Shown one piece after another: positions 44,776 to 45,442 of a stretch of DNA of 64,000 nt (within the stretch, counting starts at the first letter, position 1; each line of letters opens with the position of its first letter). Origin of the DNA: Escherichia coli (GTDB lineage Bacteria; Pseudomonadota; Gammaproteobacteria; Enterobacterales; Enterobacteriaceae). The translations under genes and the position numbers were made by a program. The notes under the pieces were generated by a model. That model was not told the origin of the DNA, searched no databases, and saw nothing but the letters and a program-made list of their open reading frames with translations. Location of the stretch: NCBI RefSeq assembly GCF_041248615.1, contig NZ_CP158426.1, one strand, 5' to 3'.

Positions 44776-44795
44776 AACTGTGTTTATATACAGTT
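44776..44795 (-). promoter_or_regulatory. LexA (SOS) box of the dinD promoter
   Basis: AACTGTGTTTATATACAGTT: CTGT-N8-ACAG palindrome with AT-rich spacer, about 45 bp upstream of the dinD start. Confidence 0.75.
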
Positions 44796-44883
44796 GTAAG
44801 TATCTCACGTTCTCACTGCGCTGGGCAAAAAAACATCGCAAAATCTGGAGCAGGCACGCAAAACAGAATTGAATGTTGCGGGG

Positions 44884-44917
44884 AGGAAAAATGCCGCTCT
44901 GTTTGAGTGGGCGGCAT
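44884..44917 (-). terminator. rho-independent terminator (minus strand), probably that of yicC
   Basis: Hairpin ATGCCGCTC…GGGCGGCAT; on the minus strand it is followed by TTTTTCC. Confidence 0.5.
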
Positions 44918-44954
44918 TTGTGAAGGCTGAAAAGGAAGAATTGGCGTTACGAGT

Positions 44955-44975
44955 TATTCAATATTCTGAATCTGT
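44955..44975 (-). other. 3'-terminal codons of yicC (…QIQNIE-stop) marking the chromosome/element junction (candidate att core)
   Basis: Minus strand reads CAG ATT CAG AAT ATT GAA TAA = QIQNIE*, which I recognise as the YicC C-terminus; the rest of yicC is absent and phage-like DNA follows. Confidence 0.55.
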
Positions 44976-45442
44976 TTGTAGAGTATTGGCTTCAATGCCG
45001 CATTGTAGCTGGTTTATTTCTAATGCGGTTTTTGATTATGTACACCCTTATGTACACGGTTTTTTCGGGTGCTTTGGCCAGAAGCCATTGTCTACATCCC
45101 TCACGATCGAGGTGTGTAACCATGTTCAGGCTTGTTGTCCTGCGCGCGCGTATTGCTCGTGAAATTGCTGTAACCAATAGTGATGTCCGAAAAAACCTCC
45201 GTTCTCACATGAAACAGCCATGTGCAACTGGTAACTGAATAGACTGGTAGACCGTTCGTTCAGTAAATACCTGATATTTTCGCCAACGAGAAATTGCGTT
45301 GGCTGGCAGAGTACAAATTTGCACGATGACCTAACCCATTGATTTTTTCGAAAACCTACAATGCAGGAAGCCGGATAACACCATTTTTATAGCTCCGATC
45401 CCTTCAAAGTGAGGGGGAATTTGCCAAAACAGAGAGAGAGCA

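Follow-up and report, generated by a model that had tools for sequence, protein, structure and literature searches.

A probable EcCIMP1-family phage satellite in the 3' end of yicC, next to dinD, in Escherichia coli

The window analysed in this work, the whole of a stretch of 64,000 nucleotides from Escherichia coli (assembly GCF_041248615.1, contig NZ_CP158426.1), contains in its right-hand part the left boundary and nearly the full length of an integrated element. The following features were mapped around the left boundary:

43908-44732, minus strand: dinD (NCBIfam DinD equivalog, 485 bits, cut-off 242), a native chromosomal neighbour outside the element
44776-44795: native LexA box of the dinD promoter, AACTGTGTTTATATACAGTT
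44889-44919, minus strand: original terminator-like hairpin of yicC, a 9-bp stem followed by U5 (-12.4 kcal/mol as folded)
44954-44974, minus strand: attL core, a remnant of yicC reading QIQNIE and stop, TTATTCAATATTCTGAATCTG, one copy of a 21-bp direct repeat
45036-45057, plus strand: two TTATGTACAC repeats, candidate arm-type integrase binding sites

The RefSeq annotation of a near-identical genome agrees with the placement of dinD outside the element, and NCBIfam profiles added little beyond DinD. The LexA box, AACTGTATATAAATACAGTT in its K-12 version, is also present in unoccupied loci, and the hairpin is identical in the unoccupied locus, the insertion having stranded it on the dinD side. 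A simple terminator scan missed this hairpin, the loop being too long, and neither its energy nor that of the replacement hairpin described below is significantly better than that of shuffled sequence (z ~ -1.5), so that both terminator calls rest on position and conservation. The first-pass annotation had described dinD, its LexA box, the minus-strand hairpin and the QIQNIE-stop remnant, all of which are in the sequence, albeit with the stop codon placed at 44955-44957 instead of its true position one base to the left, 44954-44956. A short way upstream its reading frame runs into stops, so the segment at 44954-44974 is a remnant and not a gene. K-12 YicC ends in ...REQIQNIE, in agreement with this origin. 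The unoccupied yicC-dinD locus of strain EP91A matches positions 42099-44974 at 99.0% identity and nothing beyond, similarity ending exactly at 44974. A match was found in 4,738 genomes; among the matches listed, unoccupied yicC-dinD loci break at 44974 or within one base of it, and loci carrying other types of element break slightly earlier or later.

The window stops 10 bases past the start codon of the integrase gene, the yicC body and the second att copy lying beyond it. The right junction was taken from E. coli NRZ14408, which is 99.995% identical to positions 24600-64000 of the window (2 mismatches). In this genome an intact yicC of 287 aa is located about 190 bp past the integrase gene, and the second att copy, TTATTCGATATTCTGGATCTG, which is identical to the 21-bp repeat at 19 of 21 positions, falls at window-equivalent positions 64179-64199. 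The expectation that an integrase-bearing element occupies the 3' end of yicC and rebuilds its C-terminal codons, with the gene body and a repeat copy on the far side of the integrase, was thus borne out: the repeat copy brought by the element supplies the last six codons and the stop of the adjoining yicC, encoding the same amino acids, and the C-terminus is unchanged. YicC of NRZ14408 differs from that of the unoccupied locus by a single, internal residue. The element also brings a replacement hairpin and U-run behind the rebuilt yicC stop. It measures 19,225 bp. Four further ATGTACA-type copies are found between the integrase gene and attR, just past the end of the window, and the left arm shares 92% identity with that of the E. 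coli 042 element. Unoccupied sites are polymorphic at the same synonymous positions as the att copies (K-12 TTATTCGATGTTCTGAATCTG versus EP91A TTATTCAATGTTCTGGATCTG), and the point of strand exchange is therefore not placeable inside the 21-bp core.

Three genes occupy the right end of the element inside the window:

62722-63990, minus strand: tyrosine integrase targeting yicC (Pfam Arm-DNA-bind_3, Phage_int_M and Phage_integrase)
62075-62725, minus strand: 216-aa ORF (orf216) that accompanies yicC-type integrases (PHROG 30524), 69% identical at the amino acid level to its counterpart in the O157:H7 yicC element
61385-61603, minus strand: AlpA-family helix-turn-helix gene (Pfam Phage_AlpA, E 6.9e-6)

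The integrase is 85.7% identical in amino acids to that of the O157:H7 yicC element and about 97% identical to the compared part of the E. coli 042 integrase. It had been called P4-type, which is right for its architecture and not for its kinship, identity to P4 Int being only 25%. AlpA shares 75% identity with its E. coli 042 counterpart and 58% with that of the O157 yicC element; it gave no match to the AlpA of EcCIMP1 at the thresholds used. This integrase type is found beside yicC in about 486 of 5,426 complete E. coli genomes (~9%), and the yicC integrase module also occurs at yicC joined to other backbones. We conclude that integrase, orf216 and AlpA form an exchangeable module that sets the chromosomal target, here yicC.

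The first-pass annotation knew of no description of this insertion site, a view overturned both by these genome counts and by the literature, in which yicC is already on record as an insertion site in E. coli. Phage DNA of ciprofloxacin-induced O157:H7 cultures gave complete assemblies of two 15,957-bp 'phage genomes' inserted at yicC (PMC4587872), which we count as activity of the yicC integrase family. Further reports concern a 15.4-kb prophage, P19, at yicC in another O157:H7 strain (PMC7609406), yicC_dinD integrations in 15 clade 8 strains (PMC9997748) and 'partial sequences of phage' between yicC and dinD (PMC10050402). The literature also places 'reference PICIs' at yicC. Outside E. coli, the Vibrio islands MGIVflInd1, MGIVchUSA1, MGIVchMoz6 and MGIVmi1, likened here by their description, use a tyrosine recombinase to enter the 3' end of yicC; these mobilizable islands are moved by conjugative elements, not phages (PMC5704250).

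Most ORFs of the element (21/23) lie on the minus strand. Apart from the integrase module and the late genes, it comprises:

45443-45730, minus strand: PerC-family regulator, the last gene of the element (PHROG 994/10396, ANR/PerC match)
45760-45892: iteron cluster 1, three TTGGTTCAG repeats and three inverted copies
45990-48708: variable cargo zone, which differs from that of EcCIMP1 and from that of the E. coli 042 element
46460-47437, minus strand: AbiD-type abortive-infection gene, part of the cargo (PADLOC AbiD, E 8e-58)
48241-48708, plus strand: cargo-zone ORF of 146-155 aa, accompanied in the zone by a 146-aa ORF on the same strand
54053-54173: iteron cluster 2, candidate replication origin directly downstream of the primase gene
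54192-56948, minus strand: primase/helicase with TOPRIM and DUF927 domains (PHROG 1139, E 2e-178)
56935-58918, minus strand: six small ORFs, kept in EcCIMP1 at 91-100% amino acid identity
58911-59939, minus strand: 'Ash family' ORF region, with PHROG Ash-type matches covering residues 106-220 only
59933-61385, minus strand: DUF4222 ORF, AntA/AntB-type antirepressor (60108-60941) and 143-aa ORF

The six units of iteron cluster 2 lie 19-139 bp past the primase stop, and cluster 1 is an inverted copy of cluster 2 (a 55-nt inverted repeat, 95% complementary). In the cargo zone, PADLOC recognised nothing except AbiD, and one match to PHROG 2158 was obtained. The N-terminus of the primase is 33% identical to P4 alpha. 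From the integrase module onwards, the backbone runs in the order antirepressor, C4/isrK-Ash region, small ORFs, TOPRIM-DUF927 primase, iterons and P22 14-7-20-16 cassette. It is found at other loci with other integrases, and the architecture of the element recurs at 92-100% identity in about 480 genomes, at several loci. A PHROG search of the element ORFs revealed no terminase, portal, coat, tail or lysis genes. In the phage collection no record holds the element, the best matches spanning 3% of it, inside the ejection genes.

These ejection genes, together with a LexA-box-like palindrome, two matches to RNA families and a fragment of a phage packaging gene, were mapped as follows:

48771-53607, minus strand: late cassette including orf53, with homologues of P22 genes 14, 7, 20 and 16
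52968-53429, minus strand: P22 gene 14 homologue
52297-52974, minus strand: P22 gene 7 homologue
50876-52297, minus strand: P22 gene 20 homologue
48771-50876, minus strand: P22 gene 16 homologue
53621-53640: second LexA-box-like palindrome, AACTGTATAAAACAACAGTT, of the form AACTGT-N8-ACAGTT
59370-59457: C4 antisense RNA match (Rfam, 80.2 bits, gathering threshold 45)
59482-59558: isrK RNA match (Rfam, 63 bits, gathering threshold 50)
59685-59791, plus strand: P22-type small-terminase gene fragment (86.9% over 107 nt to P22 nt 4-110, E 7e-33)

The cassette matches PHROGs 651, 598, 917 and 770 and gave tblastn matches in both P22 and Kapi1; Pfam returned no match for the gene-16 homologue. Gene order and family assignments are those of the ejection proteins and assembly factor encoded by P22 genes 14-7-20-16, identity to P22 being 56% for gene 7, 38% for gene 20 (N-terminal half) and 30% for gene 16. 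In the satellite, unlike in P22, no portal, coat or terminase genes accompany this putative ejection cassette. The cassette ORFs are intact and, compared with those of E. coli 042, show dN/dS values of 0.10-0.24. Read on the minus strand, a TATAAT hexamer immediately precedes the LexA-like palindrome, and the ribosome-binding site and ATG of orf53 follow closely. The palindrome is one of two matches to the LexA-box pattern in the window, where 0.01 would be expected, and its position is conserved in EcCIMP1 and two further relatives. A sigma-70 promoter scan gave no match near either LexA box, that of dinD or the internal one. The first base of the small-terminase fragment corresponds to that of the pac site annotated in P22 (P22 4-25), although only 16/22 bases of the pac-like 22-mer match P22 pac, and no terS ORF is present at 59685-59791. 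EcCIMP1 and the E. coli 042 element also contain the fragment, and the surrounding 401 nt occur in 483 genomes.

The closest characterised relative is EcCIMP1, a 19,963-bp phage-inducible chromosomal island (PICI) of E. coli MP1 that targets tRNA-Thr (Pick, Stadel and Raivio, ISME J 2025, PMC11773190). EcCIMP1 excises only with its helper, the P22-like phage Kapi1, as established by PCR and transduction, and both integrase and AlpA are needed; its alpA is activated by the helper, DNA damage alone being insufficient; Kapi1 lysates transfer EcCIMP1, at an extremely low rate of transduction (PMC11773190). Nucleotide identity to our element amounts to 97.8% over 9.3 kb (window positions 52137-61395), with gene-by-gene synteny from the 143-aa ORF beside alpA to the gene-7 homologue, and most of the syntenic genes are 91-100% identical in amino acids. 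Primase (99.6%), AntA/B antirepressor (97.5%), DUF4222 ORF (95.5-99% like the antirepressor and the 143-aa ORF), small ORFs, iterons, pac fragment and internal LexA-like box are common to both, the over-called 'Ash' ORF being 84.5% identical. The two elements differ in the integrase (29%) and the PerC-like gene (54%), in the gene-20 homologue, alike only N-terminally (48%), and at the gene-16 position, where EcCIMP1 carries a different 906-aa protein. The cargo differs as well, EcCIMP1 having other genes and a second AlpA-like gene, in place of AbiD. This partition is the one drawn by the authors of EcCIMP1, for whom antirepressor, Ash and primase are conserved and integrase, AlpA and PerC vary (PMC11773190). 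Their paper is silent on the pac fragment, on LexA and on RNA genes and calls the packaging mechanism unknown (PMC11773190). The P22 pac-region fragment, the second LexA-like palindrome before the ejection cassette and the C4/isrK matches are thus observations absent from that account.

Two further elements occupy the same site. That of E. coli 042 belongs to the same family: over 12.9 kb, a stretch that takes in the entire ejection cassette, the nucleotide sequences are 97.6% identical. It carries a death-on-curing toxin pair instead of AbiD and an attL remnant 6 bp shorter. The O157:H7 yicC element shares target gene and orientation and likewise has AntA/B antirepressor and PerC genes, but its backbone is different, with a 608-aa primase, ssb and ProQ/FinO genes and neither ejection cassette nor pac fragment; its att identity block is shifted (TGAATCTGCTC) and its rebuilt YicC ends in QIQNVE. 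We considered whether it might be the characterised PICI EcCIEDL933 and dropped this identification, as the O157 yicC element is without capsid genes. The name EcCIEDL933 occurs 81 and 76 times, respectively, in two preprints on capsid-forming PICIs.

PICIs are recognised by alpA downstream of int and by genes running in one direction (PMC10111431), and both traits are found here. The integrase lies at one end of the element and a direct-repeat att site flanks it; the primase has a candidate origin downstream, as judged from its sequence; and the 19,225 bp fall within 10-20 kb without a full set of virion and lysis genes, the only virion-type content being the gene 14/7/20/16 homologues and the terS fragment. 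What had been called 'phage-like' DNA is indeed a mobile element, better stated as a PICI than as a prophage. We conclude that it is very probably an integrated Gram-negative PICI, a phage satellite of about 19.2 kb belonging to the EcCIMP1 family.

The late cassette, in phage order and accompanied by a piece of terS, could also be what is left of a P22-like prophage that lost most of its genes and its mobility, and prophage finders do label such regions 'partial' or 'incomplete' phages (PMC10050402, PMC11773190). We regard this as unlikely. A P22-like (Lederbergvirus) prophage would carry terminase, portal, scaffold, coat, tail and lysis genes and a repressor region, yet the matches to P22 are confined to the gene 14/7/20/16 homologues and 107 nt of terS, and the rest of the element has no counterpart in P22 or Kapi1, including replication and regulation genes of PICI type that both phages lack. 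Decay is further contradicted by the intact ORFs and low dN/dS, by the recurrence of the same architecture in hundreds of genomes noted above, and by the behaviour of the close relative EcCIMP1, which excises and is transduced. Dependence on a P2-like helper, as a satellite of the P4 kind, is still less probable. P4 itself has P2 as its helper and a tRNA-Leu gene as its integration site. The element resembles it in the arm-binding tyrosine integrase at one end, the AlpA-like gene, the N-terminal domain of the primase, the C4/CI-type RNA match and the replication repeats at two separate places, the two iteron clusters recalling P4 ori and crr. However, when the 23 ORFs were compared with the P4 genome by tblastn, only the integrase and the primase N-terminus matched, at the identities given above; no ORF matches psu, sid, delta, epsilon or cII, nor was there any PHROG match with such a function. 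The late cassette, like the pac fragment, is of the P22 type, and the demonstrated helper of EcCIMP1 is a P22-like podovirus.

The position of the element raised another explanation, since no more than about 160 bp separate its attL core from the dinD LexA box: that the insertion is tied to the SOS response, the dinD promoter driving element genes or the element altering dinD expression. The adjacency pointed out in the first-pass annotation is physically real, and no functional meaning is evident. We consider such a tie highly improbable. Both dinD and its promoter point away from the element, and no SOS coupling through this promoter is therefore expected; in unoccupied loci the promoter, the LexA box and the hairpin in between are no different. 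Moreover, EcCIMP1 alpA follows the helper and not DNA damage alone, and the same backbone works at the tRNA-Thr site. The closeness of the element to the dinD SOS promoter looks incidental.

Returning to the reading as an EcCIMP1-family PICI, a life cycle can be proposed largely by analogy with the EcCIMP1 experiments. The element would stay quiescent as long as no resident P22-like helper phage is induced; upon such induction AlpA would be turned on, AlpA and integrase both being required for excision and circularisation. The primase would presumably replicate the element from the iterons, and its DNA would be packaged in helper particles, for which the captured P22-type pac fragment at 59685-59791 may serve. 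Cleavage of LexA may switch on the ejection cassette through the palindrome at 53621-53640; the native dinD promoter, firing away from the element, would have no role. Induction and excision could differ from those of EcCIMP1, given an AlpA without detectable similarity and an integrase only 29% identical.

Insertion site, integrase family and satellite family have each been described before, and the element leaves yicC and dinD intact. It is a clean, fully delimited example of how such satellites are built from conserved and exchangeable parts: one backbone, an exchangeable integrase/AlpA address module and an exchangeable defence cargo, here AbiD, ending in a PerC-family regulator. The pac fragment, the LexA-like site before a full ejection cassette and the C4/isrK-type RNAs could make the question of EcCIMP1 packaging and helper directly testable. 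We tentatively suggest that the EcCIMP1 family, carried by about 9% of complete E. coli genomes, may have specialised in parasitising P22-like podoviruses by a mechanism new among satellites, being packaged via a captured copy of the helper's pac region and supplying its own ejection proteins from a LexA-controlled promoter, although we hold this to be rather less likely than not to be the case. If it were true, the poor mobilisation of EcCIMP1 by Kapi1 would be explained, the Kapi1 small terminase being unrelated to P22 gp3; the real high-frequency helpers would be phages with a P22-type small terminase; and particles carrying the satellite would deliver their DNA with satellite-encoded ejection machinery.

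The left end of the element lies between yicC and dinD, where dinD, its LexA box, a hairpin and the codons QIQNIE-stop, all reported by the first-pass annotation, were recovered:

43908-44732, minus strand, dinD (NCBIfam DinD, 485 bits)
44776-44795, upstream of dinD, the dinD LexA box, palindrome AACTGTGTTTATATACAGTT
44889-44919, minus strand, the old yicC hairpin, whose fold has a 9-bp stem and then a U-run
44954-44974, minus strand, the yicC remnant TTATTCAATATTCTGAATCTG, reading QIQNIE-stop

The yicC stop itself occupies 44954-44956, one base to the left of where it had been placed. 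K-12 YicC ends in REQIQNIE, as anticipated from the remnant, and stop codons a few codons further upstream close the reading frame, so that only a remnant of the gene is present at 44954-44974. Similarity to the unoccupied yicC-dinD locus of strain EP91A (99.0% over 42099-44974) ends at 44974. When 5,426 complete E. coli genomes were searched, the unoccupied loci among the matches listed break at 44974 plus or minus one base and the loci carrying other element types slightly earlier or later; the exact left junction of the window occurs in 141 of these genomes.

Since the window stops ten bases past the integrase start codon, the right junction was read from NRZ14408, a near-identical E. coli genome with two base differences only from window 24600-64000. 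There, the integrase is followed about 190 bp on by TTATTCGATATTCTGGATCTG and then by an intact 287-aa yicC. The two copies of the 21-bp repeat are 19/21 identical and spaced 19,225 bp apart. Both the yicC body expected beyond the window and the repeat copy beside the integrase are thus seen in NRZ14408, and the proposed insertion at the 3' end of yicC with rebuilding of its C-terminal codons is correct. Between the lysogen and the unoccupied strain, YicC differs by a single internal residue and its C-terminus is unchanged. Behind the rebuilt stop the element provides a new hairpin of its own, GC-rich and with a U-run, and the original yicC hairpin is left beside the remnant on the dinD side. 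Repeats of the TTATGTACAC type are found at both ends, two at 45036-45057 and four between the integrase gene and the right-hand core, a layout that makes them candidate arm-type integrase sites. The att sequences vary among the elements at yicC in the window, E. coli 042 and O157: the remnant is 6 bp shorter in 042, and in O157:H7 the ends share only TGAATCTGCTC and YicC is rebuilt as ...QIQNVE (att loci compared: L004 19242-19290 and 35150-35240; L005 19343-19400).

The 23 ORFs of the element were scanned with PHROG, Pfam, NCBIfam and PADLOC. The minus-strand order is:

1, tyrosine integrase with an arm-binding domain
2, 216-aa ORF
3, AlpA-family gene
4, 143-aa ORF
5, AntA/AntB antirepressor
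6, DUF4222 ORF
7, 'Ash' region
8, six small ORFs
9, 919-aa TOPRIM/DUF927 primase
10, 53-aa ORF
11, homologues of P22 genes 14, 7, 20 and 16 (the ejection cassette)
12, cargo zone with an AbiD-type abortive-infection gene
13, PerC-family regulator

The element had been described as phage-like, and it is indeed a mobile element with an integrase; it is, however, not a prophage, and the four scans detected no gene for terminase, portal, coat, tail or lysis among the 23 ORFs. By content and order, its genes match those of a Gram-negative phage-inducible chromosomal island (PICI), as summarised in PMC10111431.

The closest comparison is EcCIMP1, the 19,963-bp PICI of E. coli MP1 (PMC11773190). The two are syntenic, with 97.8% identity over window 52137-61395, and most proteins from the 143-aa ORF through the gene-7 homologue are 91-100% identical, the 'Ash' ORF being 84.5% identical. 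In contrast, the EcCIMP1 integrase is only 29% identical and uses a tRNA-Thr site, similarity between the AlpA proteins is not detectable, PerC is 54% identical, and the two also differ in cargo and in the distal portion of the ejection cassette. The same pattern was reported for 'EcCIMP1-like' elements, in which antirepressor, Ash and primase are conserved and integrase, AlpA and PerC variable (PMC11773190).

This modularity extends to other genomes. The backbone (window ~45206-61395) is found elsewhere in the chromosome together with different integrase modules, and at yicC the integrase/orf216/AlpA module is also combined with other backbones: in the O157:H7 element the integrase is 85.7% identical and the primase different, strain TW10598 has a DUF5906 primase, and strain elppa10 carries another variant. 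E. coli 042 carries at yicC essentially the same satellite with toxin-antitoxin cargo. The window-type integrase lies beside yicC in 486 of 5,426 E. coli genomes. Although the first-pass annotation knew of no description of this site, insertions there are on record: two 15,957-bp 'phage genomes' from phage DNA of ciprofloxacin-induced O157:H7 cultures (Yin et al., PMC4587872), the 15.4-kb prophage P19 (Yara et al., PMC7609406), yicC_dinD integrations in 15 clade 8 strains (PMC9997748), a partial phage sequence with integrase and att sites in the yicC-dinD interval (PMC10050402) and Vibrio mobilizable genomic islands at the yicC 3' end (PMC5704250). We conclude that the element adds a member to a known satellite family and occupies a site already on record.

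That annotation had also stressed the neighbouring SOS promoter. The dinD gene, promoter and LexA box are native and unchanged (two spacer bases differ from the K-12 box), they are transcribed in the direction leading away from the element, with the old yicC hairpin in between; nothing was found to suggest that this position matters. In EcCIMP1 the same backbone functions at a tRNA gene (PMC11773190). As a separate observation, the yicC-site satellite of elppa10 (NZ_CP083478, L011 4376-5200) carries beside attL its own dinD paralogue, which shares 85% identity with the strain's chromosomal dinD and lacks a LexA box upstream. Chromosomal dinD alleles, too, diverge by 16% from strain to strain. 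On both grounds, dinD might be former cargo of yicC-site elements. Further to the left in the window, a second integrase gene by tRNA-Sec (selC) (~24600-25581; tRNA ~25487-25581, transferred from the annotation of NRZ14408) indicates another island at selC.

The structure of the element, its att repeat, the rebuilt yicC and a very close kinship with EcCIMP1 are directly observed; the mode of action is proposed by likeness. EcCIMP1 excises and circularises only with its P22-like helper phage Kapi1, at a level raised by mitomycin C, and requires its integrase and the adjacent alpA, which responds to the helper and not to DNA damage alone; marked EcCIMP1 is transferred by Kapi1 lysates (PMC11773190). 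Excision and circularisation of the window element would likewise depend on a helper, integrase and AlpA, and AlpA would act with its own integrase, since it travels with the integrase and not with the backbone. The primase and iterons likely form the replication module. The remaining features are:

45760-45892, iteron cluster of six TTGGTTCA units, just upstream of perC
45990-46430, plus strand, AbiD-flanking ORF in the cargo zone
48241-48708, plus strand, AbiD-flanking ORF in the cargo zone
54053-54173, iteron cluster of six TTGGTTCA units, just after the primase gene
59370-59457, minus strand, C4 antisense RNA (Rfam, 80 bits)
59482-59558, minus strand, isrK (Rfam, 63 bits)

The iteron clusters are mutually inverted (55 nt, 95% complementary) and 8.3 kb apart, with the late and cargo zones between them, recalling the ori/crr arrangement of P4. 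Both RNA matches fall inside a 342-aa ORF annotated 'Ash family protein', which is probably over-called; the region looks like an RNA immunity cassette of the P1/P4 type. The cargo zone holds different genes in the EcCIMP1 and 042 relatives, and neither plus-strand ORF matched a PADLOC defence family. At its edges, three copies of a 29-nt CGCGCGCGTA...-type repeat (45143-45171, 47815-47843 and 48101-48129; 69-83% alike) encode a QF(R/H)(D/E)QYAR motif on the minus strand and might be what is left of a small repeated gene marking cargo exchange points.

A 107-nt piece of a small-terminase gene of P22 type, with no terS ORF, lies at 59685-59791 (plus strand) and is 86.9% identical to P22 nt 4-110. 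It begins at the first base of the 22-bp pac site, annotated in P22 at 4-25, and similarity in nearly all phage matches begins at that same base. Its pac-like 22-mer agrees with P22 at 16/22 positions and with a natural variant (phage Louie) at 17/22; the ~60 nt that follow are nearly invariant. The fragment is also present in EcCIMP1 and the 042 element, and the surrounding 401 nt occur in satellite context in 483 genomes. It may be the packaging signal of the satellite. The small terminase of Kapi1 bears no relation to gp3 of P22, nor does Kapi1 DNA contain anything matching the fragment, which would fit the very low rate at which Kapi1 transfers EcCIMP1 (PMC11773190).

A second LexA-like box, AACTGTATAAAACAACAGTT (AACTGT-N8-ACAGTT), is located at 53621-53640. 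It immediately follows a TATAAT hexamer and lies shortly ahead of the first ejection-cassette gene. With 0.01 occurrences expected, the window has two of the 12-base palindromic pattern, one at this position and one at dinD; the internal copy is conserved in position in four relatives, and neither P22 nor Kapi1 has it. The cassette is complete and intact, with dN/dS of 0.10-0.24 against the 042 copy. Term searches of the EcCIMP1 paper (PMC11773190) found neither these three leads nor those of the iterons and C4/isrK. What merits experimental work in this satellite is the pac fragment, the internal LexA-like box and the ejection cassette.
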